Source: Nitrosopumilus sp. | GTDB taxonomy: Archaea > Thermoproteota > Nitrososphaeria > Nitrososphaerales > Nitrosopumilaceae | Direction: 5' to 3' | NCBI GenBank assembly: GCA_965238065.1 | Contig: OZ250170.1 | Coordinates: 1,148,422-1,180,421 of the forward strand | Length of the DNA stretch: 32,000 nucleotides | Part shown: piece after piece, positions 8,229-28,864 of the stretch | How positions within the stretch are numbered: the first letter of the stretch is position 1 | Layout of the letters: each line of letters begins with the position of its first letter | Notes under the pieces: model-generated | What the model was told of the DNA's origin: nothing | The model's database searches: none | What the model saw: the letters and a program-made list of their open reading frames with translations, nothing else | Made by a program: the position numbers and the translations under genes

Positions 8229-8340
8229 TATTATTCAAGAATATATGTGGATTCAGATAACATGATTTACGGTTACCTATCAACTCCCAAAATTATCCTA
8301 TGGATATGATGAATTAGAACCATTCATTGATGCAGAAACA

Positions 8341-8889
8341 ATGAAGATTCATCACCAGAAACATCATCAGACATATGTTGACGGACTAAACAGATCACTT
8401 GAACAGATGGGCAGTGCATCACACCCACAGTATATTTCATCTATTCTCTCTGATCTAAAATCAATTCCTGAATCAGGGCAAAACGCAATCAACTTTTTTG
8501 GTGGAGGGTTTGAGAATCACAGATTATTTTGGGAGACATTGATTCCAGATAGTGACGGCAAACCCGGAGGAAAATTGGCAGATTCGATTGATGTTTATTT
8601 CAACAACTTTGAGAATTTCAAGAAAGTTTTTTCAGAAAAGGCGATCGCCATTCAAGGAAGTGGCTGGTGCTGGTTAGTCTTCAATCAGACTTTTAACAAA
8701 ATTGAAATTATTACAACTTTAAACCAGGATAGTCCTTGGATTCTTCAAAAAATTCCTTTGTTAGGATTAGATGTCTGGGAACACGCATACTATCTAAAGT
8801 ACCATAATAAGAGATCTGATTATGTTAAGGCATGGTGGAATATTGTGAATTGGGATTACGTAGGAAATCGATTCATAGAACTCCCTTGA
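8341..8889 (+). CDS. sod: Fe/Mn superoxide dismutase. As an ORF it lacks the conserved N-terminus; see the finding on a frameshift at the start.
   Basis: MKIHHQKHHQTYV...GLDVWEHAYYLKYHNKRSDYV carries the Fe/Mn-SOD metal ligands and signature. The conserved TYQLPKLSYGYDELEPFIDAET is encoded in the same frame at 8275-8340 but without a start codon. Confidence 0.85.
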   Translation: MKIHHQKHHQTYVDGLNRSLEQMGSASHPQYISSILSDLKSIPESGQNAINFFGGGFENHRLFWETLIPDSDGKPGGKLADSIDVYFNNFENFKKVFSEKAIAIQGSGWCWLVFNQTFNKIEIITTLNQDSPWILQKIPLLGLDVWEHAYYLKYHNKRSDYVKAWWNIVNWDYVGNRFIELP

Positions 8890-8945
8890 CATGATATGCC
8901 TAATTTGGGCAAATTCTTTTAAAGAAAGATAGGATTTTTCATTTA

Positions 8946-11372
8946 ATGAATAGAAGTCTAAAGTATATTGCGCTTCTTGCAATCATTCCCTTGTTTACTG
9001 CAGGGTTGACAACTGACTATTTCACAGATGCCAATGCAGCCAAAGGTAAAGGTGTTAAAATCTTATCATACGGTTCTGACACTAATATTTGTGGTTTACA
9101 ATTGTGTTCTGAAATTCTAGGTGGCAAGGCCGCATGGATGGAACAGAAAAAGATATCAATTCCTGTGATAGCAGTTATGGATGATACCATGATGGATGAT
9201 ACCATGATGGATGATACCATGATGGATGATACCATGATGGATGATACCATGATGGATGATACCATGATGGATGATACCATGATGGATGATACCATGATGG
9301 ATGATACCATGATGGATGATACCATGATGGATGATACCATGATGGATGATACCATGATGGATGATACCATGATGGATGATACCATGATGGATGATACCAT
9401 GATGGATGATACCATGATGGATGATACCATGATGGATGATACCATGATGGATGATACCATGATGGATGATACCATGATGGATGATACCATGATGGATGAT
9501 ACCATGATGGATGATACCATGATGGATGATACCATGATGGATGATACCATGATGGATGATACCATGATGGATGATACCATGATGGATGATACCATGATGG
9601 ATGATACCATGATGGATGATACCATGATGGATGATACCATGATGGATGATACCATGATGGATGATACCATGATGGATGATACCATGATGGATGATACCAT
9701 GATGGATGATACCATGATGGATGATACCATGATGGATGATACCATGATGGATGATACCATGATGGATGATACCATGATGGATGATACCATGATGGATGAT
9801 ACCATGATGGATGATACCATGATGGATGATACCATGATGGATGATACCATGATGGATGATACCATGATGGATGATACCATGATGGATGATACCATGATGG
9901 ATGATACCATGATGGATGATACCATGATGGATGATACCATGATGGATGATACCATGATGGATGATACCATGATGGATGATACCATGATGGATGATACCAT
10001 GATGGATGATACCATGATGGATGATACCATGATGGATGATACCATGATGGATGATACCATGATGGATGATACCATGATGGATGATACCATGATGGATGAT
10101 ACCATGATGGATGATACCATGATGGATGATACCATGATGGATGATACCATGATGGATGATACCATGATGGATGATACCATGATGGATGATACCATGATGG
10201 ATGATACCATGATGGATGATACCATGATGGATGATACCATGATGGATGATACCATGATGGATGATACCATGATGGATGATACCATGATGGATGATACCAT
10301 GATGGATGATACCATGATGGATGATACCATGATGGATGATACCATGATGGATGATACCATGATGGATGATACCATGATGATGGATGAAACAACAGAGGCA
10401 GACTTGGATTCTGTACTTAGATTATCAAGAGCAAACGTTCCAGCAGTAATTCCACTGCACCAAGGATACTATGACGGCGAAGATGTTTATTTTATCATCA
10501 CTGACTCTAGTGATCCTGCTCATGCAAAAATAATTACAGAGAATCAAGGATGGCAAGTAGAGCTTGCACCCTTGTTAGCAAACGCTCCTGATGAGGCACT
10601 TTCAAAGATATACATATTTACCAACGGTGTTGTTGGCGATGGCATTCATGAATACCAAGGTGAAGTCTTTACAAGCACTCCTGCACAAACAGACACATAC
10701 AGTGCATTGACTTCTCATGTTCATGTTACATGGAATGAAAGTGAAACATCAAGAATACTTGATTCAGATGAAATGATTATGAAAGCAGTCGAGAACGGAG
10801 AAATTACATTAACTAACGTTGATGTAATTTTAAACATGCCACAGATTATTTGGCCTGAGGGTCAGATGATGGTTAAAGAAGACAAAACTTTGACTGATGA
10901 GCAGCCATATGGTGGGGGTCAAGTTCTTGATATAGATACAGAGGAGATGAATGTAACTTTCATCGCTCATCGTGGATGGGGTCCTGATGGTAGAACAATC
11001 TATTACATTGTAACAGATGCTACTCCAAGCGGGCCTGCAGAATTGATGGGTGTTGTAAGTGCACCAACATTATCTAGCTTGATTACAAATTCAGCGGCAG
11101 TTGATCTATTCCAATTCAAAAACGGAATAACAGGCTCTGGCCCATTAGGTTTCCAAGCTGGAATTGCAACCTCGGCACCTAATGATGCCAATTATTCTCC
11201 AATATGGAGAATTTCTGGCATTACATGGGAAAACCCAGATGATGCATCTCTTCTTCAAACATTGCAAGACATTAGCGCATTCCAAAAAGCAGGACTTGTC
11301 AGTACAACATTACTACGTCCAATGGATAGTGATCACATTGTCAACTGTCCATTCATAGATCCATTCCAATAG
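8946..11372 (+). CDS. Secreted repeat protein: signal peptide, (MMDDT)x80 tract, internally duplicated C-terminal domain of unknown function
   Basis: 808-aa ORF. The N-terminus MNRSLKYIALLAIIPLFTAGL...ANA is signal-like. A 1200-nt in-frame repeat follows. The non-repetitive C-terminal ~330 aa has normal-looking composition. Confidence 0.8.
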   Translation: MNRSLKYIALLAIIPLFTAGLTTDYFTDANAAKGKGVKILSYGSDTNICGLQLCSEILGGKAAWMEQKKISIPVIAVMDDTMMDDTMMDDTMMDDTMMDDTMMDDTMMDDTMMDDTMMDDTMMDDTMMDDTMMDDTMMDDTMMDDTMMDDTMMDDTMMDDTMMDDTMMDDTMMDDTMMDDTMMDDTMMDDTMMDDTMMDDTMMDDTMMDDTMMDDTMMDDTMMDDTMMDDTMMDDTMMDDTMMDDTMMDDTMMDDTMMDDTMMDDTMMDDTMMDDTMMDDTMMDDTMMDDTMMDDTMMDDTMMDDTMMDDTMMDDTMMDDTMMDDTMMDDTMMDDTMMDDTMMDDTMMDDTMMDDTMMDDTMMDDTMMDDTMMDDTMMDDTMMDDTMMDDTMMDDTMMDDTMMDDTMMDDTMMDDTMMDDTMMDDTMMDDTMMDDTMMDDTMMDDTMMDDTMMDDTMMDDTMMDDTMMDDTMMDDTMMMDETTEADLDSVLRLSRANVPAVIPLHQGYYDGEDVYFIITDSSDPAHAKIITENQGWQVELAPLLANAPDEALSKIYIFTNGVVGDGIHEYQGEVFTSTPAQTDTYSALTSHVHVTWNESETSRILDSDEMIMKAVENGEITLTNVDVILNMPQIIWPEGQMMVKEDKTLTDEQPYGGGQVLDIDTEEMNVTFIAHRGWGPDGRTIYYIVTDATPSGPAELMGVVSAPTLSSLITNSAAVDLFQFKNGITGSGPLGFQAGIATSAPNDANYSPIWRISGITWENPDDASLLQTLQDISAFQKAGLVSTTLLRPMDSDHIVNCPFIDPFQ
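9177..10376 (+). repeat. Perfect tandem repeat, 80 x 15 bp (ATGGATGATACCATG)
   Basis: Every 60-nt line from 9181 to 10320 is identical. The unit phase starts at 9177 and first deviates at 10377. Confidence 0.95.
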
Positions 11373-11384
11373 GGATAAACTCTA

Positions 11385-11396
11385 TTTTATTTTTTT
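11385..11396 (+). terminator. Oligo-T tract, candidate archaeal terminator of the repeat-protein gene
   Basis: ttttattttttt lies 13 nt after the stop codon. Archaeal termination typically uses T runs. Confidence 0.3.
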
Positions 11397-11486: not shown

Positions 11487-12788
11487 CAGTTAACCCAGAT
11501 GTGCTCAAAATCAGCTAAAAATGCAAAGATCTATAGGAGGGACGTCTCAAACAGTAATTCGTGCTTAAGCAAACAAACCGTCTGAGACGCGATTTAATTA
11601 ATAATCGTACAGCATATCAACAAATCACATTTTTTCTTGAAAACTACCTGTCATTATACAATACCAGTATCCACCAGATATAATGCAGTGTATACTCTGA
11701 ACAATTTTTTTCAGGGCATGATGCGTGTATCAATTCTTACTACGTCAATCGCCAGATGTGCTTCTTCGTTTCAAAAGTTTGCACAATTGGATAATGACTC
11801 GTGCAGGCAAAGAAATCCAATCGGAGAGTGGTTTCGCAATATGCTCTCCAAAATAAGGATTAGTGACGTTCGTGAATCCTTTGAATCCACACTACGAGAA
11901 CAAATTTCCATGTTTCAACATATCAAATGTCTTTCAAAAAAATGTGATTATATAATTGACATGCATGAAATATCACGATATGATAAGAAACATGCACCAG
12001 ATCTACGACGTGGTAAATACAAAAATGGAACATCGTGGTTTGAGACATATGTCACCATACAATGTGTCAACGGTGGCCTCGCATCTGGTTTTGGCATCAT
12101 TACATGTTCCTGCACTAGAAAATTATGGCAAATTCGTGCGTAAAATTGTAACTATATGCACTGAACTGGATGTAAACATTGGAACCATAATGCTGGATCG
12201 AGTGTTTTTTTTTCAACCAGTGTAATGCAGACCTTGGATGAACTCGGGGTTTAATTTTTGATTCCATGTAAAAACACTACTACTGTTGTTGATGCTCTAA
12301 ATGATTTTGCTGCAGGCAAACGCAAGCGTATCACAATATCTGTAATTACATCTAGTACATCACATCAGAAATTTGAATACACAATGAAAATAACTGAGAG
12401 AAAAAAGATAAAGCGCAACACTGGCAATAAAGAACCAAAAGAAAAGTACATTGGATTTGCAACCAATTCACCTAATGTTAATGTGCGAAAATATGCCAAA
12501 CGATGGGGAATCGAGACAGGATATAGGATGATTGAATCGACAAGGCCTAGAACGCGCAGTACCAACATGGCATCACGTGAATTCTGTTTTCTTTATGCGA
12601 TAATAGTGTTCAATGCGTGGGTGATGGCAAATGCACTGATTTCACGTGGTAGATAGAGAGAGAGATGGAAGGGTAAGATAACAATGACGGACATGAGGAT
12701 TATGATAAACGAATCTGTGATATGGTCGAAACTACCTCCTGAACCACTTCCGAATTGGTCAGGATTGTGAGCACATCTGGGTTAACTG
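11487..12788 (+). mobile_element. IS4/ISH3-type insertion sequence (1302 bp) with an inactivated transposase
   Basis: TIRs CAGTTAACCCAGATGTGCTCA(A/C)AATC at both ends. 5-bp direct repeat ACAAT at 11482-11486 and 12789-12793. Confidence 0.85.
11637..12656 (+). pseudogene. DDE (DDE_Tnp_1 / IS4-ISH3 type) transposase, disrupted
   Basis: Three ORF pieces in frames 3/1/3 (11637-12143, 11956-12225, 12258-12656). They contain IIDMHEISRYDKK...GKYKNGTSWF, LDRVFFFQPV and YAKRWGIETGYRMIES (the Y-x2-R-x3-E signature). Continuity needs 2 frameshifts plus read-through of a TAA near 12255. Confidence 0.75.
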
Positions 12789-13254: not shown

Positions 13255-13337
13255 GTATGAATCAAGCAAAGAACATGTTTTATGCCTGTAACGTCTTGAC
13301 TATTCTAGTAGATTTAGGTGCAGAGGTTGATACATAC
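13255..13337 (+). mobile_element. MITE-B copy, overlapping the 3' end of the ORF 13280-14227
   Basis: gtatgaatcaagcaaagaacatg...gcagaggttgatacatac. No TSD recognisable. Confidence 0.85.
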
Positions 13338-14227
13338 TGTAATTTTAAAATCTCATCTAAAATTGTCCCTGCAAATCTCCTCGCTGGTTTTTGCTTTTTT
13401 AAAATTTCAGTGGCAATCTGCACCAAATAAGGACGTAATAATTTGTCACTAAAACACAGTTTTAGCGTATCATAGTATTCTAGTATCATAGTGTCATTCT
13501 TTTCACAAACTATCTTTTGAACTATCAGAGTTGCCCTATTTACTTTGTCATGTGTCTCAAGTTGAATCATCGCATACTGTAAAAACTCTTGTACAACTTC
13601 TTTGTGTCTTTGTATTATTGATGCAGTTAATCTAAATTTTGAGATATTGCTAAATTTTATCAGTATCTGGGATACTGTATTGTCAAATTTCATATAATAC
13701 TGTTGCATTAATGGTGCCACTTGTAACAGTAAAATTTCATCAAACACGTAGTTTTTTGACAAGTTTCTTTCTATATCAATTACAAGTTCAATTATTACAA
13801 ATACAAATTTCAGAGGATCCAATATTTCAGATTTTTTGTATTCTACAGAGTATTTTGCAAACATCTGGTTTAACATGTTGATTGCATGTGCAGACAACAA
13901 ACTCCTGCTTTTGTCTGCATCCAATGTCTTGATAATTTTAAGAAGAATGGCTGCAAATAACGAATAGTTTTTTGCCGAATATCCGTTATTTCTTAGGCAC
14001 TGACTCTCAAAAATACTTGCAAATTCATCCAAGATTCTTGGAATTTGCTCTGCTTGTTTTATGTTTCTAAAATTGATTATCTTGTCCGGTTTAGAGTTGC
14101 TTTTTACTATAAACAAAGGATTAGCTAGTTTCAATGCACTTTGAATCGATGCTAGTCTGACCCTGTTACCTCTGCTGTATTTGTTTTTTTGTAATGTGTG
14201 AATGGATTGAATCAATGAATCATACAA
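13280..14227 (-). CDS. Hypothetical all-helical protein (orphan) with a MITE-derived C-terminus
   Basis: 315-aa uninterrupted ORF in AT-rich DNA. No motif recognised. The last 18 codons and the stop lie inside MITE-B (YVSTSAPKSTRIVKTLQA*). Confidence 0.5.
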   Translation of the reverse strand: MYDSLIQSIHTLQKNKYSRGNRVRLASIQSALKLANPLFIVKSNSKPDKIINFRNIKQAEQIPRILDEFASIFESQCLRNNGYSAKNYSLFAAILLKIIKTLDADKSRSLLSAHAINMLNQMFAKYSVEYKKSEILDPLKFVFVIIELVIDIERNLSKNYVFDEILLLQVAPLMQQYYMKFDNTVSQILIKFSNISKFRLTASIIQRHKEVVQEFLQYAMIQLETHDKVNRATLIVQKIVCEKNDTMILEYYDTLKLCFSDKLLRPYLVQIATEILKKQKPARRFAGTILDEILKLQYVSTSAPKSTRIVKTLQA

Positions 14228-14323
14228 TAAAGTTTGTTACCTTGCTATCTTCATAAACGTTACATATATGCACAAAAGGTATGTGTCAACCCTTACGCCT
14301 GAATCAACTAGATTAGTTGGATG

Positions 14324-14405
14324 GTATGTATCAACCTCTACGCCTAAATCCACTAAAATAGTTGGACGTTATAGTCGTAAAACATGCTCTTTGCTTGATT
14401 CATAC
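14324..14405 (-). mobile_element. MITE-B copy inserted in the older MITE-B
   Basis: Flanked by GTTGGATG (14316-14323) and GTTGAATG (14406-14413), a 7/8 match. Confidence 0.85.
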
Positions 14406-23257: not shown

Positions 23258-26200
23258 ATGTCTAAATTGAGAAGTCTACATTTGATCTTCATGTTTCTGA
23301 TATTAGCACTTGGGTCGTTGTATACTATAATGTACCAAAATGTATCTGCAACTGGAGACGAAATCATATCAAACACCATAGAAGTCAATGATCTTACAGC
23401 AGACGCCCTTGTCTTGTCTAATTATGATTACTTTGGACAATCCATTGCAAACATTGGCGACCTGAATGGTGACGGTGTATTAGATATTGCAGTTGGTGCA
23501 TCTGGTGATGATGCTGGTGGTGCTAATAGAGGCGCCATACATGTAATGCTTATGAACAGTGATGGAAGTGTATCAAACACCATAGAAATCAATGATCTTA
23601 CAGCAAACGGCCCTGTCTTGTCTGGTTTTGATTTCTTTGGATCATCCATTGCAAACATTGGCGACCTGAATGGTGACGGTGTATTAGATATTGCAGTTGG
23701 TGGTGCCAACAAAGGCACCATACATGTAATGCTTATGAACAGTAATGGAAGTGTATCAAGTACAATAAAAATCAATAGCAATACAGCAAACGGCCCTGTC
23801 TTGTCTAATTCTGATTTCTTTGGATCATCCATTGCAAACATTGGCGACCTGAATGGTGACGGTGTATTAGATATTGCAGTTGGTGCATCTGGTGATGATG
23901 CTGGTGGTACCGACAAAGGCACCATACATGTAATGCTTATGAACAGTAATGGAAGTGTATCAAACACCATAGAAATCAATGATCTTACAGCAAACGGCCC
24001 TGTCTTGTCTAATTCTGATTCCTTTGGACAATCCATTGCAAACATTGGCGACCTGAATGGTGACGGTGTATTAGATATTGCAGTTGGTGCATCTGGTGAT
24101 GATACTGGGGGTACTAGTAGAGGTGCCATACATGTAATGCTTATGAACAGTAATGGAAGTGTATCAAGTACAATAAAAATCAATAACAATACAGCAAACG
24201 GCCCTGTCTTGTCTGATAATGATTTCTTTGGACAATCCATTGCAAACATTGGCGACCTGAATAATGACGGTGTATTAGATATTGCAGTTGGTGCAACTGA
24301 TGATAATACTGGGAGTACCGACAAAAGTACCATACATGTAATGCTTATGAACAGTAATGGAAGTGTATCAAACACCATAGAAATCAATGATCTTACAGCA
24401 AACGGCCCTGTCTTGTCTGATAATGATTACTTTGGACAATCCATTGCAAACATTGGCGACCTGAATAATGACGGTGTATTAGATATTGTAGTTGGTGCAA
24501 CTGGTGATAATGCTGGGGGTACTCGTAGAGGCGCCATACATGTAATGCTTATGAACAGTGATGGAAGTGTATCAAACACCATAGAAATCAATGATTTTAC
24601 AACAAACGGCCCTGTCTTGTCTAATTTTGATTTCTTTGGATCATCCATTGCAAACATTGGCGACCTGAATAATGACGACATATCATATATTGCAGTTGGT
24701 GCAACTGGTGGTAATAGTAGAGGCGCCATACATGTAATGCTTATGAACAATGATGGAATCGTATCAAACACCATAGAAATCAATGATCTTACAGCAAACG
24801 GCCCTGTCTTGTCTGATAATGATTACTTTGGACAGTCCATTGCAAACATTGGCGACCTGAATAATGACGGTACATTAGATATTGCAGTTGGTGCACCTGG
24901 TGATGATACTGGGGGTAGCAACAAAGGCGCCATACATGTAATGCTTATGAACAGTAATGGAAGTGTATCAAACACCATAGAAATCAATGATCTTACAGCA
25001 AACGGCCCTGTCTTGTCTAATTTTGATTCCTTTGGACGCTCCATTGCAAACATTGGCGACCTGAATGGTGACGACATATTAGATATTGCAGTTGGTGCAC
25101 CTGGTGATGATACTGGTGGTAATAGTAGAGGCGCCATACATGTAATGCTTATGAACAGTGATGGAAGTGTATCGAGTACAATAAAAATCAATAACAATAC
25201 AGCAAACGGCCCTGTCTTGTCTAATTTTGATTTCTTTGGACAATCCATTGCAAACATTGGCGACCTGAATAATGATGGTACATTAGATATTGCTGTTGGT
25301 GCAATTGGTGATGGTCCTGGGGGTACCAACAAAGGTGCCATACATGTAATGCTTATGAACAGTAATGGAAGTGTATCGAGTACAATAAAAATCAATAACA
25401 ATATAACAAACGGCCCTGTCTTGTCTGATAATGATTTCTTTGGACAATCCATTGCAAACATTGGCGACCTGAATAATAACGGTGTATTAGATATTGCAGT
25501 TGGTGCATCTGGTGATGATACTGGGGGTACTAGTAGAGGCGCCATACATGTAATGCTTATGAACAGTAATGGAAGTGTATCAAACACCATAGAAATCAAT
25601 GATCTTACCGCAAACGGCCCTGTCTTGTATAATTATGATTACTTTGGACGCTCCATTGCAAACATTGGCGACCTGAATAATGACGGTGTATTAGATATTA
25701 CAGTTGGTGCATCTGATGATGATGCTGGTGGTACCGACAGAGGTGCCATACATGTACTGTTTATGAACAGTGTTAACACGACTTTGCCAACCATAACTAA
25801 CATCACATCTAATGCAATAACTTCTGGTGTACTCAAGGTAGGCGATACCATATCATTCACATTGACTCTGACTTCAGCTGAGAACGGTGCTACTATTAAT
25901 GGTACTTACAACTCTGTACCATTATCCTGGAACAGTATCAACAACGGAACCACATACACTGCAACATACACCATATCTGAAGGGGATGCGGATCAGACTA
26001 CACCACTTCAAATCACTGGTGTAACAATCACAGATAGTACAGGCAGTACGAGCTTGCCATTTAATGGTACTGACATACTAGATACCATTGATGCAAACTC
26101 TCCCCAATTCTCTAGTGCCCAAACCCTCTCAATTTCACAGATTGCAATCACACTAGACCAGAGTGTTACTGACTCTACTGCCACTCCTAATGACTTTACA

Positions 26201-28864
26201 CTTGGAGGGGTCACTGGCGGTTCAATTAATTCCATAGTGTCTGTCTTGAATGATATAATTACACTTGACATCACTGGTACGACAATCTCTGATAGTGATG
26301 ATGTGACTATATCTTATGCCAGAACGTCTGGATCAATTGATGATGTGTCTGGCAATTCATTGCTAGACTTTGCAAAAGATGTAGCAAACAATCTGGATAC
26401 CACTCCTCCAATGATAACCCTGATTGGTGACAATCCACAGACCATAGAGCAGGGAGCAGGATACACAGAACTAAACGCCACAACTAACGACGGCTCACCA
26501 GTTACCATAAACTCTGCAAATTTCACTGACGCAGTAGGTAATTACACCATCTATTATGATTCAACTGACACAGCAGGCAATACCGCAATCCAGGTCAGCA
26601 GAACTGTAAACGTAGTTACCCCCACTTTACCAACATTCTCATCAGCAGTACTAAATGAGGGAACTGGCATCTTTACAATCACATTTAGCGAGATAATTAA
26701 TGCCTCTGCCATAAACTCTGCTGGATTCTCCATCAGGGATAACAATACCAGTACTGGCGCTATAACACTATCAAATCTGGAACTAACCACAACTGCCAAC
26801 GGTGCAACAATATCATTCAACATGACTATGGCTAATCGTCAGTCCGTAATTGCATTTAACGTCTCAGTGCTGGACATTGGTGCCGGTGCAGTACAGGACA
26901 TTAATGGTAACGCAATTACATTGTCTGCAAACAATACCATCACAACCACTTCTGACAGCATTCCACCAGTCATTTCCCTGATTGGTGACAATCCACAGAC
27001 AATAGAACTTGGTGATGGCTATACAGAATTAAACGCCACAACTAACGACGGCTCTACAATAACCATAAACTCTGCAAATTTCACTGACGCAGTAGGTAAT
27101 TACACTATCTATTATGATTCAACTGATACAGCAGGCAATAACGCAATCCAGGTTAATAGGACTGTAAACGTAGTTGACACCACTCTACCAACACTCTCAT
27201 CAGCAGTACTAAATGAGGGAACTGGCACCTTTACAATCACATTTAGCGAGACAATTAATGCCTCTTCCATAAACTCTGCTGGATTCTCCATCAGGGATAA
27301 CAACAATAACACCAGTACTGGCGCTATAACACTATCAAATCTGGAACTAACCACAACTGCCAACGGTGCAACAATATCGTTCAACATGACTATGGCTAAT
27401 CGTCAGTCCGTAATTGCATTTAACGTCTCAGTGCTGGACATTGGTGCCGGTGCAGTACAAGACATTAATGGTAACGCAATTACATTGTCTGCAAATAATA
27501 CCATTACAACCACTTCTGACAGCATTCCACCAGTCATTTCCCTGATCGGTGACAATCCACAGACAATAGAACTTGGTGATGGCTATACAGAATTAAACGC
27601 CACAACTAACGACGGCTCTACAATAACCATAAACTCTGCAAATTTCACTGACGCAGTAGGCACTTACTATATCTATTATGATTCAACTGATACAGCAGGC
27701 AATAACGCAATCCAGGTTAATAGGACTGTAATTGTATCTGATACCACTCCACCAACATTCTCATCAGCTGCACTAAATGAGGGAACTGGCATCTTTACAA
27801 TCACATTTAGCGAGACAATTAATGCCTCTGCCATAAACTCTGCTGGATTCTCCATCAGGGATAACAACAATAACACCAGTACTGGCGCTATAACACTATC
27901 AAATCTGGAACTAACCACAACTGCCAACGGTGCAACAATATCATTCAACATGACTATGGCTAATCGTCAGTCCGTAATTGCATTTAACGTCTCAGTGCTA
28001 GACATTGGTGCCGGTGCAGTACAGGACATTAATGGTAACGCAATTACATTGTCTGCAAATAATACCATCACAACCACTCTTGATAGCATTCCACCAGTCA
28101 TTTCCCTGATCGGTGACAATCCACAGACCATAGAGCAGGGAGCAGGATACACAGAACTAAACGCCACAACTAACGACGGCTCACCAGTTACCATAAACTC
28201 TGCTGAATTCATGGATGCAGTAGACACATACTATATCTATTATGATTCTGTTGATATATCCGGAAATGTTGCCACTCAGGTTATCAGGACTGTAAACGTA
28301 ACGGATACTATCCCGCCAGCATTCTCATCAGCCGTTCTAAATGTGGAAACAGGTGTCATTACAATCCAATTTAGCGAGACAATCAATGTATCAACCATAA
28401 ATCCCATCGGACTATCAATACGGGATAACAATAGTGGTGCCGTAACACTCTCTGTTTCAGAACTAATCACAACTGCTAATGGTAGAACTATATCATTTAA
28501 CATGTCTCAAACCAAACTTGCATCAGTAACAGCATTCACCATGTCAGTGCTAGACATTGATGCTGCAGCAGTTAGTGATGTCTCTGGAAATAAGATTATC
28601 GTATCTACAGATAACCCCATCAGAGTCACTACTCTTCCGCACTCTCATACACCTTGCCATCTTCCCGGTTCTGGAGACTGGATAATTACAACTAGTTGTA
28701 TGCTTTCTACAAACTATGTGACTCTTGAAAATGTGATTGTACGAAATAACTCTGTCCTGATTATTCTTGATGAGATCACTCTGGATATCGACTTTCTAAA
28801 CAATAACCTCACAATAGAATCTGGAAGCGGGGTTTTGATTGAATCCGGCGGAACAATCACCTGA
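23258..28864 (+). CDS. Giant secreted/surface protein: 12 FG-GAP (integrin-alpha type) repeats, Ig-like domains, 4 tandem DUF5011-like + Ig-like double modules, beta-helix-like tail
   Basis: 1868-aa ORF. Signal-like MSKLRSLHLIFMFLILALGSLYTIMYQNVSA. 12 x FG(Q/S/R)SIANIGDLN(G/N)DGVLDIAVGA. 4 x PP(V/M)I(S/T)LIGDNPQTIE.G.GYTELNATTNDGS..TINS..F.DAVG.Y.IYYDS.D.(A/S)GN. Confidence 0.9.
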   Translation: MSKLRSLHLIFMFLILALGSLYTIMYQNVSATGDEIISNTIEVNDLTADALVLSNYDYFGQSIANIGDLNGDGVLDIAVGASGDDAGGANRGAIHVMLMNSDGSVSNTIEINDLTANGPVLSGFDFFGSSIANIGDLNGDGVLDIAVGGANKGTIHVMLMNSNGSVSSTIKINSNTANGPVLSNSDFFGSSIANIGDLNGDGVLDIAVGASGDDAGGTDKGTIHVMLMNSNGSVSNTIEINDLTANGPVLSNSDSFGQSIANIGDLNGDGVLDIAVGASGDDTGGTSRGAIHVMLMNSNGSVSSTIKINNNTANGPVLSDNDFFGQSIANIGDLNNDGVLDIAVGATDDNTGSTDKSTIHVMLMNSNGSVSNTIEINDLTANGPVLSDNDYFGQSIANIGDLNNDGVLDIVVGATGDNAGGTRRGAIHVMLMNSDGSVSNTIEINDFTTNGPVLSNFDFFGSSIANIGDLNNDDISYIAVGATGGNSRGAIHVMLMNNDGIVSNTIEINDLTANGPVLSDNDYFGQSIANIGDLNNDGTLDIAVGAPGDDTGGSNKGAIHVMLMNSNGSVSNTIEINDLTANGPVLSNFDSFGRSIANIGDLNGDDILDIAVGAPGDDTGGNSRGAIHVMLMNSDGSVSSTIKINNNTANGPVLSNFDFFGQSIANIGDLNNDGTLDIAVGAIGDGPGGTNKGAIHVMLMNSNGSVSSTIKINNNITNGPVLSDNDFFGQSIANIGDLNNNGVLDIAVGASGDDTGGTSRGAIHVMLMNSNGSVSNTIEINDLTANGPVLYNYDYFGRSIANIGDLNNDGVLDITVGASDDDAGGTDRGAIHVLFMNSVNTTLPTITNITSNAITSGVLKVGDTISFTLTLTSAENGATINGTYNSVPLSWNSINNGTTYTATYTISEGDADQTTPLQITGVTITDSTGSTSLPFNGTDILDTIDANSPQFSSAQTLSISQIAITLDQSVTDSTATPNDFTLGGVTGGSINSIVSVLNDIITLDITGTTISDSDDVTISYARTSGSIDDVSGNSLLDFAKDVANNLDTTPPMITLIGDNPQTIEQGAGYTELNATTNDGSPVTINSANFTDAVGNYTIYYDSTDTAGNTAIQVSRTVNVVTPTLPTFSSAVLNEGTGIFTITFSEIINASAINSAGFSIRDNNTSTGAITLSNLELTTTANGATISFNMTMANRQSVIAFNVSVLDIGAGAVQDINGNAITLSANNTITTTSDSIPPVISLIGDNPQTIELGDGYTELNATTNDGSTITINSANFTDAVGNYTIYYDSTDTAGNNAIQVNRTVNVVDTTLPTLSSAVLNEGTGTFTITFSETINASSINSAGFSIRDNNNNTSTGAITLSNLELTTTANGATISFNMTMANRQSVIAFNVSVLDIGAGAVQDINGNAITLSANNTITTTSDSIPPVISLIGDNPQTIELGDGYTELNATTNDGSTITINSANFTDAVGTYYIYYDSTDTAGNNAIQVNRTVIVSDTTPPTFSSAALNEGTGIFTITFSETINASAINSAGFSIRDNNNNTSTGAITLSNLELTTTANGATISFNMTMANRQSVIAFNVSVLDIGAGAVQDINGNAITLSANNTITTTLDSIPPVISLIGDNPQTIEQGAGYTELNATTNDGSPVTINSAEFMDAVDTYYIYYDSVDISGNVATQVIRTVNVTDTIPPAFSSAVLNVETGVITIQFSETINVSTINPIGLSIRDNNSGAVTLSVSELITTANGRTISFNMSQTKLASVTAFTMSVLDIDAAAVSDVSGNKIIVSTDNPIRVTTLPHSHTPCHLPGSGDWIITTSCMLSTNYVTLENVIVRNNSVLIILDEITLDIDFLNNNLTIESGSGVLIESGGTIT
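23365..25770 (+). repeat. 12 tandem coding repeats of ~180-204 bp (FG-GAP units) with high nucleotide identity
   Basis: Recurrent blocks such as ccattgcaaacattggcgacctgaat and catacatgtaatgcttatgaacagt recur with a ~200-bp period. Confidence 0.9.
26400..28640 (+). repeat. 4 tandem coding modules of 558-564 bp; the middle two are almost identical
   Basis: at(t/c)ggtgacaatccacagac starts at 26423, 26981, 27545 and 28109. Confidence 0.9.

Follow-up and report, generated by a model that had tools for sequence, protein, structure and literature searches.

The window analyzed here is a 32,000-nucleotide (nt) stretch of a Nitrosopumilus sp. genome (contig OZ250170.1, positions 1,148,422 to 1,180,421). 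On its plus strand, an open reading frame (ORF) of 808 amino acids (aa) at 8946 to 11372 contains 80 perfect copies of the 15-nt unit ATGGATGATACCATG (9177 to 10376, residues 78 to 477), which encode an (MMDDT)80 tract. Comparison of this gene with its orthologs indicates that the tract is a real coding minisatellite, greatly expanded, in the linker between two domains. This conclusion is much firmer than the role in copper recruitment that we also consider for it.

As judged from the ORF list, the amino acid composition, and the layout of orthologs, the protein comprises a signal-like N terminus, a Cys-loop module, the (MMDDT)80 linker, and a DUF7482 domain, all encoded on the plus strand. 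Its first 31 residues (8946 to 9038), in which MNRSLK is followed by a 15-residue hydrophobic core and an A-N-A motif, look like a Sec signal peptide; hydropathy is highest at residues 8 to 22 (Kyte-Doolittle 15-residue maximum of 2.2), and the segment is nearly invariant in 54 orthologs. Alignment of these orthologs also delimits a conserved module of ~45 residues (residues 32 to 77, 9039 to 9176), which holds an invariant Cys pair, C-G-L-Q-L-C (9090 to 9107; C-G-x-Q-L-C in the family), and a GGKxxW motif, with C49, G50, C54, S55, G59, and G60 invariant throughout. The Cys-module motif is also found in the distant homologs P0121, P0123, and P0125. Between this module and the tract lies a hinge, ISIPVIAV in the window versus a PV-rich "PVAPV" in the orthologs. 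The tract itself contributes 160 Met, 160 Asp, and 80 Thr, amounting to 47.5 kDa with a formal charge of about -160, and Met accounts for 2.9% of the remaining 408 residues. Without the tract the protein is about the size of its orthologs (~410 to 465 aa).

The C-terminal 331 aa match the full length of the Pfam DUF7482 profile (PF24298; positions 1 to 257 of 257) with an E value of 9.9e-104 and 347 bits, against a cutoff of 27.5 bits. The domain spans ORF residues 510 to 783 (10473 to 11294), and it is the sole domain that a Pfam scan found in the protein. AlphaFold2 folds this C-terminal part confidently from a 58-sequence alignment (predicted local distance difference test score, 88.8; predicted template modeling score, 0.87); the first 16 modeled residues, the end of the linker, are disordered, and the folded region corresponds to about 10422 to 11369. 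Within DUF7482 a module of ~140 aa is duplicated, and the two halves (10434 to 11369) align with an E value of 3e-11. Neither a sequence search nor Foldseek returned a solved structural relative. His321 and Cys325, an H-x3-C pair near the C terminus, are invariant over 58 sequences of 37 to 87% identity, and the distant homolog P0121 (767 aa) has three DUF7482 stretches. The ORF list, hydropathy, and Pfam match thus bear out the original prediction that the tract lies in frame within an 808-aa ORF with a signal-like N terminus and a nonrepetitive C-terminal region.

An exact string test found zero mismatches across the 80 units, as had been predicted, and Tandem Repeats Finder reported 80.2 copies with 100% matches, 0 indels, and a score of 2406. 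To the right of the array the periodicity persists for 3 nt more (ATG, to 10379), and to the left it does not extend at all. As read from the sequence, this partial copy is followed by a decayed one, ATGGATGAAACAACA (M-D-E-T-T; the two together at 10377 to 10394, plus strand). The decayed copy (10380 to 10394) matches the unit at 11 of 15 bases and keeps GAA (Glu), as in the orthologous unit of locus L082. All 80 units encode Thr with ACC, a codon used for 2 of the 34 Thr residues elsewhere in the gene. Two long minus-strand ORFs that cross the array (MVSSI and HPSWY repeats) were considered as coding and rejected, because only the plus frame joins the conserved flanks; the absence of stop codons from the repeat in those frames is what makes these ORFs long.

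A search for homologs of the protein returned 2906 sequences, the top matches being 77 to 88% identical. The close relatives all come from Nitrosopumilus metagenome-assembled genomes (MAGs) or isolates, and all named close homologs belong to Nitrosopumilus or other Nitrososphaerota, in keeping with the earlier presumption that the organism is an ammonia oxidizer. The closest public contig shares 84 to 90% nucleotide identity in common genes, so the window represents another species of the same clade. Nitrosopumilus orthologs have the same layout as the window protein, which carries every feature of the ortholog group found next to the superoxide dismutase (SOD) gene: the signal-like N terminus, the CGxQLC module, an acidic linker, DUF7482, and a position after SOD.

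The orthologs do carry a counterpart of the Met/Asp tract, a point that the original prediction had proposed to check. At the same position between the Cys module and DUF7482, 55 orthologous loci have a linker rich in Met, Glu, and Asp, in places also His and Lys, with a median length of 36 aa and a range of 22 to 240 aa. Compared with the domain, these linkers are enriched in Met (14.8% versus 3.9%), Glu (22% versus 5%), and Lys (8% versus 2%), and His reaches at least 5% in 16 of the 55; acidic residues are their sole universal feature. More than 20 of the linkers are DNA tandem arrays of 2 to 11.3 copies, mostly with 88 to 100% identity and with periods of 12, 15, 18, 21, 27, 30, 36, 39, or 54 nt, all multiples of 3 among arrays scoring 50 or more. 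Their units include (ETMME)n, (EAMMEE)x7, (EKHME)x6-7, (HDDDDKMMM)x6, and (MDHSKTDHPK)x5.7. The closest, GAAACCATGATGGAT x 11.3 in L082 (protein P0040), encodes MMDET and is one nucleotide off the window unit (GAA to GAT). By sequence comparison, then, the tract is homologous to the linkers of the orthologs. The earlier note did not recognize the repeat from any described family; this no longer stands, given that the C-terminal domain is Pfam DUF7482 and that the tract has short homologs in the orthologs.

Three orthologs show how closely the loci correspond outside the repeat itself. P0040 (L082; (MMDET)x11), P0090 (L070; (HDDDDKMMM)x6), and P0001 (L081; (MDHSKTDHPK)x5.7) share with the window the gene, its position after SOD, the N-terminal module, and the C-terminal domain (77 to 88% identity), and in each a Met-rich acidic linker is coded by near-perfect in-frame tandem repeats. 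They differ in having 2 to 11 copies rather than 80 and, in the closest unit, Asp-Glu where the window has Asp-Asp. P0001 is the closest relative overall (88% domain identity), and its His-rich unit is wholly unrelated to that of the window, so the linker must turn over much faster than the rest of the gene. Copy number also varies among relatives, with one 36-nt unit more or less distinguishing the linkers of L007 and L015. Within one sample, by comparison, each of two contigs has 11.3 copies. From these comparisons, the family linker would normally be short, disordered, strongly acidic, and usually Met rich, with units and copy number that turn over quickly. The 80 copies of the window are ~7 times as many as in the next longest simple array found.

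Met-rich regions of other kinds occur in DUF7482 relatives. The Nitrosopumilus DUF7482 paralogs P0123 (852 aa) and P0172 have very long, nonsimple Met-rich N-terminal regions, and L072 has 257 aa between its Cys motif and an LRLSR motif. Cys-bearing modules recur within these regions of P0123, P0172, and L072 (e.g., ...DTMMMDMMDNNMMDMMKAMDD...), and the regions may represent folded Met-rich domains instead of linkers. In a Nitrosarchaeum MAG, the gene directly upstream of the DUF7482 gene (L062, 4137 to 4556) encodes a 139-aa protein with one N-terminal membrane helix, the remainder being extremely rich in Met, Asn, and Gln; it has no significant match to a Pfam family.

A unit of 15 nt can be gained or lost without any shift of the reading frame, and the array shares with coding variable-number tandem repeats its identical units and their length divisible by 3. 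It may have grown by replication slippage or unequal recombination. The uniform ACC codon in all 80 units makes it simplest to suppose that one mutated founder unit expanded; this founder, a single nucleotide off the MMDET unit of the relative, would have reached ~80 copies. The original prediction took the zero divergence to imply very recent expansion, ongoing concerted evolution, or an assembly artifact, and the first of these is not required: near-perfect identity is the norm for linker arrays in this family, which points to ongoing slippage or unequal exchange, and the uniformity of the array need not mean one very recent event. By our own estimate from general microbial mutation rates, a 1.2-kb sequence would acquire its first substitution after on the order of a million generations.

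We also examined the folding potential of the repeat. The unit is a quasi-palindrome (ATGGAT-G-AT-A-CCAT-G) in which 12 of 15 positions pair with another copy. The repeat folds well both as single-stranded DNA (-23.4 kcal/mol per 150 nt; z = -4.7) and as RNA (-61.5 kcal/mol for 150 nt; z = -9); a full transcript of the array could form a very long imperfect hairpin. Hairpin potential may favor slippage in general. Expansion driven by a hairpin specific to this unit was rejected, since ortholog units with 3 to 11 copies fold equally well or better, and hairpin potential therefore does not explain the 80 copies.

A perfect array 7 times longer than any orthologous simple array raises the question of whether the assembler or polisher inflated or homogenized an array that is real but much shorter or heterogeneous. 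The other public data searched contained neither the protein nor the repeat: patterns of three and of about two repeat units had no match in Joint Genome Institute metagenome contigs, the 808-aa protein has no record in a collection of 15 billion proteins, and the best genome match is only 81% identical. We nevertheless regard such an artifact as very unlikely. Short arrays occupy the same site in many independent assemblies, and long-read MAGs carry related arrays of 11 to 13 copies. Elsewhere in the window, where conserved genes are intact, an array of ~10 tandem copies of a 204-nt (68-aa) unit (23698 to 25771) has 87% matches; its retained 13% divergence argues that the assembly does not homogenize repeats. 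A de Bruijn assembler would collapse or break an array like that of the 80 units instead of writing out 80 copies, which makes it likely that the sequence derives from long reads spanning the 1.2 kb.

The composition of the linkers extends beyond DUF7482 proteins. The fetched loci together hold 877 ORFs of 100 aa or more, in which 20-residue windows with at least 6 Met occur in 17 of 84 DUF7482 ORFs versus 3 of 793 others, a difference of ~50-fold, and 2 of those 3 others directly adjoin a DUF7482 gene. One, in a Cenarchaeum MAG (L061), encodes a protein in which a Met/Glu-rich linker joins an N-terminal anchor to a DM13 "electron transfer" domain (PF10517). This DM13 gene (L061, 6098 to 7075) lies directly downstream of the DUF7482 gene. 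Its product has 3842 relatives, and all 22 that we inspected, from Nitrosopumilus, Nitrosotenuis, and other Nitrosopumilaceae, combine an anchor, a Met/Asp/Glu(/Lys) repeat linker, and a globular domain. The units include (DDTMMEDEMK)x13, (EKEDDDAMMM)x10, (EEEMMKDDGTM)x8, (KMMDN)x9, and (ETMMG)x5, and the DNA arrays have 30-nt units in 10.9 to 12.6 copies with 98 to 100% identity (L061; L090, 6001 to 6912; L091, 6001 to 6840). An exact 17-mer, GATGATACCATGATGGA, is common to the repeats of L090 and the window, which lie in unrelated genes. The DM13 proteins thus resemble the window protein in having an anchor, a linker of variable copy number, and a small globular domain; they differ in that the globular domain and N terminus are unrelated and the longest arrays are ~13 copies of a 30-nt unit. 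The shared layout argues that these archaea have a class of exported proteins marked by the combination of anchor, repeat linker, and globular domain.

Length variation within the DM13 family can be seen between two Nitrosotenuis proteins, P0434 and P0510, which are 100% identical save for a 35-residue gap that corresponds to seven KMMDN units. The pair is direct evidence that whole units are gained or lost, with one reservation: short-read assemblies can collapse repeats, and the gap could be either a clean copy-number polymorphism or a repeat collapse in one of the assemblies. Together with the ortholog arrays, with their in-frame periods and 2 to 11.3 copies, this pair upholds at the family level the earlier claim of a frame-preserving, length-variable tract.

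The best single explanation for the tract, which we put forward tentatively, is that it is a copper-recruiting tether. A ~47-kDa chain rich in thioether and carboxylate groups, situated between the membrane and the surface layer (S-layer), would bind copper transiently, with low affinity and high capacity, Cu(I) at the Met thioethers and Cu(II) or other cations at the Asp carboxylates. Metal would be concentrated there or stripped from chelates and then handed on near the cell surface, as the Met-rich domain of CueO recruits Cu(I). Under this model we infer that the protein is exported, that the tract is disordered, that it binds metal, and that 80 copies bring a benefit. Extracytoplasmic copper proteins use as ligands the residues in which the marine linkers are enriched (Met, Asp/Glu, and often His), and some ortholog linkers hold His-Met units such as EKHME and MDHSK. 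The same composition recurs in unrelated DNA units (EKHME, HDDDDKMMM, MDHSKTDHPK, and EAMMEE) and in two unrelated families, which argues for selection on composition. Ammonia-oxidizing archaea depend heavily on copper (PMC7785015).

The nearest functional parallel may be CueO itself, in which a Met-rich domain, of different size in different species, binds Cu(I) transiently and recruits it from forms in which it is strongly chelated (PMC11494321, PMC12041951). Like the CueO domain, the tract is putatively extracytoplasmic and flexible, and it is Met dense, length variable, and attached to a probable redox protein; by this analogy it may work in the same way. Unlike it, the tract has no sequence homology to that domain, no multicopper oxidase domain beside it (Pfam detected none of the cupredoxin type in the window protein), and no MxM, MxxM, or His, and it forms a perfect tandem array ~10 times longer. 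Further comparators for copper binding are the Met/His motifs of CopA/PcoA, CopB, PcoE/SilE, CusF, and Ctr1. The tract falls outside every described copper-motif family: it fails the test of motif spacing and comes with no multicopper oxidase domain.

A link between DUF7482 and copper is also seen in soil Nitrososphaeraceae, where five homologs (P0146, P0271, P0272, P0273, and P0289) have DUF7482 fused to a plastocyanin/azurin-type domain. The plastocyanin-type domain of P0146 scores 30.8 bits against a cutoff of 21.2; the other four assignments come from precomputed domain listings. In these fusions (also at locus L084), the cupredoxin is N or C terminal and carries the motif C-T-[IVFL]-H-P-[YF]-M. 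The fusions link DUF7482 to copper-based electron transfer, with plastocyanin-type domains confined to the distant soil homologs. A "BCP" protein with a C-terminal blue copper domain is encoded in a 25-gene cluster, 15 genes of which show upregulation in copper-limited N. viennensis (PMC7785015); we considered it as a possible DUF7482 protein, and no correspondence to DUF7482 could be established. A bacterial type IX secretion system sorting tail is carried by one distant giant protein that has DUF7482-like stretches.

Several observations weigh against a copper-recruiting tether. The tract contains no canonical Mets motif (0 MxM, 0 MxxM, and no His, with 80 MxxxM and 79 MM). Met falls below 10% in 21 of the 55 ortholog linkers, with a minimum of 0%, and Lys, which is not a copper ligand, is enriched along with the candidate ligands. 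Linkers of the soil homologs are rich in Gln, Ser, Asn, and Thr, so the basic role of the linker may be that of a spacer only. No copper-handling genes were found among the window ORFs scanned, and the search for conserved neighbors of the soil homologs yielded five contexts with no common partner. The CCATGATGG core shared by repeats could reflect a slippage-prone DNA motif rather than selection. Finally, with 80 copies, 7 times the next array and seen nowhere else, the allele may be transient, nonadaptive, or misassembled. The original proposal of an extracytoplasmic metal, possibly copper, buffer is hence borne on indirectly: the composition, the second protein family, and the cupredoxin fusions are consistent with it, and the missing MxM/MxxM motifs, the Met-free linkers, and the Gln/Ser linkers of soil homologs are not.

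These same observations lend themselves to a different reading, in which the linker is a pure spacer that underwent runaway expansion, neutral or mildly harmful; the composition would be a by-product of a slippage-prone unit, and the 80 copies would have no function. Linker composition is indeed not fixed, given the soil linkers and the marine orthologs that lack Met, and the window allele is unique and far beyond the family range. At the DNA level, the quasi-palindromic core CCATGATGG is common to many units and folds well as single-stranded DNA, which is compatible with a DNA-level driver, and an unrelated gene has this core too, again with the rare ACC codon. Yet units of unrelated DNA still code for Met together with acidic or His residues, the DM13 exoproteins have the same composition in 22 of 22 cases, Met-dense windows are concentrated in DUF7482 ORFs over other ORFs of the same loci, and the window unit is no better a hairpin former than units with far fewer copies. 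We consider runaway expansion of a spacer somewhat unlikely. If the linker were only a spacer, the locus would still provide a clean natural case of extreme minisatellite growth in an archaeal coding sequence and might serve for strain typing. A precedent for a spacing role exists in the Ser-Asp stalks of staphylococcal Clf/Sdr proteins, long acidic low-complexity in-frame arrays that vary between strains and space a domain from its anchor, and in coding variable-number tandem repeats of other surface proteins. Their residues, anchor polarity, and organism differ from those of the window tract, and their display function has been demonstrated.

Acidic residues, universal in the ortholog linkers, suggest yet another role: the linker might act, like the negatively charged S-layer, as a polyanionic cation exchanger or reservoir. 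The S-layer of N. maritimus acts as a negatively charged cation trap in which charge rises toward the membrane (PMC11153153). Such a role would leave the enrichment in Met and His unexplained, and Lys is also enriched in many linkers. Unstructured carboxylates would moreover be swamped by the Na+ and Mg2+ of seawater. We regard a cation reservoir as extremely improbable.

The gene lies directly downstream of an Fe/Mn SOD gene (8266 to 8889, plus strand), identified by NCBIfam SOD matches and frame translation. Of 81 sequences examined (the window and 80 related loci), 50 have SOD on the same strand, upstream of this gene. The intergenic region contains a terminator-like element at 8897 to 8911 (plus strand), a small G+C hairpin followed by a T-rich stretch found by consensus scan as a pattern match only, between the SOD stop codon (8887 to 8889) and the gene start. 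Next to it, a conserved block, AATTCTTTTAAAG (8912 to 8924, plus strand), is invariant in a four-locus DNA alignment and forms a TATA-like box centered ~26 nt 5' of the ATG. In keeping with general archaeal promoter architecture, this box suggests that the gene is transcribed from a promoter of its own into a leaderless or short-leader mRNA. Thirteen nucleotides past the stop codon, a T-run read from the sequence, TTTTATTTTTTT (11385 to 11396, plus strand), is likely an archaeal transcription terminator. An operon with SOD was considered and set aside: synteny is kept, but the terminator-like hairpin and the conserved TATA-like box lie between the genes, and we do not assume cotranscription.

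The start of the SOD gene is itself unusual. The window has ACG at 8269 to 8271, where SOD orthologs have an ATG or GTG start, and this could be a start-codon mutation, noncanonical initiation, or a sequencing error. The region reads "*FTVTYQLP" in the window versus "*FMVRYELP" in orthologs. The first canonical start is at 8341, and its use would drop ~25 conserved N-terminal residues. The earlier remark that the gene sits directly downstream of SOD is therefore correct as to position; the functional link that it implied is weakened by the hairpin and TATA-like box between the genes and by the ACG start.

Proximity to SOD would also fit a sacrificial oxidant sink, in which exposed Met residues quench H2O2, hypohalous acids, and reactive nitrogen species outside the membrane. 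Marine ammonia-oxidizing archaea, most of which have no catalase, are sensitive to H2O2 (PMC6593220), and MrpX with YedY/MsrP provides a precedent (PMC4436054). MrpX and the window protein are alike in being very Met-rich polypeptides, exported or putatively so, in an oxidative-stress gene setting (SOD in the window). They differ in that MrpX is a small free peptide recycled by YedY, whereas the window tract is a strongly acidic linker in a two-domain protein with no adjacent Met sulfoxide reductase (Msr). Near two soil homologs there are genes for MsrA, MsrB, thioredoxin, or DsbA-like proteins, as well as for tyrosinase; we do not take the tyrosinase, Msr, and thioredoxin genes as evidence of a conserved partner. 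No Msr, YedY, or MsrP family member was found among the window ORFs scanned, and Msr genes are absent from 3 of the 5 soil contexts, with PMSR/SelR in the other 2, up to 7 kb away. The promoter-like box and terminator-like hairpin set the gene apart from SOD, and an oxidant sink would leave the frequent His, the acidic residues, and the cupredoxin fusions unexplained. On this evidence an oxidant sink seems distinctly unlikely, and a copper-recruiting tether is the reading we retain.

A broader version of that reading would take in both protein families. At least the DUF7482 and DM13 proteins may belong to a new exported class whose variable Met/carboxylate linkers make up a tunable brush between the membrane and the S-layer, capturing copper or quenching oxidants, with the 80-copy allele as a high-capacity variant selected under copper scarcity or stress. 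Copper would be drawn by this brush from strongly complexed seawater pools for the copper-dependent respiratory machinery. We regard this extension of the tether as unlikely.

Marine ammonia-oxidizing archaea rank among the ocean's most abundant cells and are unusually copper dependent, and we know of no chalkophore or dedicated copper uptake system in them. How they acquire copper is an open question that the family-level pattern described here makes experimentally approachable. In the literature searched, DUF7482 is mentioned in no paper, and no paper joins Met-rich sequences, ammonia-oxidizing archaea, and copper. Two unrelated exported families with fast-evolving Met/acidic repeat linkers point to an apparently undescribed class of linker in archaeal nitrifiers.

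A published H2O2 proteome study probably contains the family under another label. In supplementary file 6 of PMC6593220, a "hypothetical protein" orthogroup, OG0028, with two members per genome, adjoins one SOD copy. The listed cases are N. maritimus SCM1, N. adriaticus NF5, and N. piranensis D3C (e.g., IMG 641316366/641316367). OG0028 is probably the DUF7482 ortholog family.

The remaining features of the window lie farther from the tract. Just downstream of the gene, 11637 to 12656 holds three overlapping ORF fragments in different frames with no Pfam match. The fragment at 12258 to 12656 has a Y-x2-R-x3-E motif (YAKRWGIE) that recalls IS4/ISH3-type transposases, and the region may be a decayed insertion sequence. 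In relatives this position is taken by other genes, such as a Fic gene in L081. Tandem Repeats Finder also detected two copies of a 45-nt unit (84% identity) at 14278 to 14366, just downstream of a minus-strand ORF at 13280 to 14227. The 204-nt array noted above belongs to a gene at 23258 to 28864, which encodes an 1868-aa FG-GAP/bacterial Ig-like surface protein.

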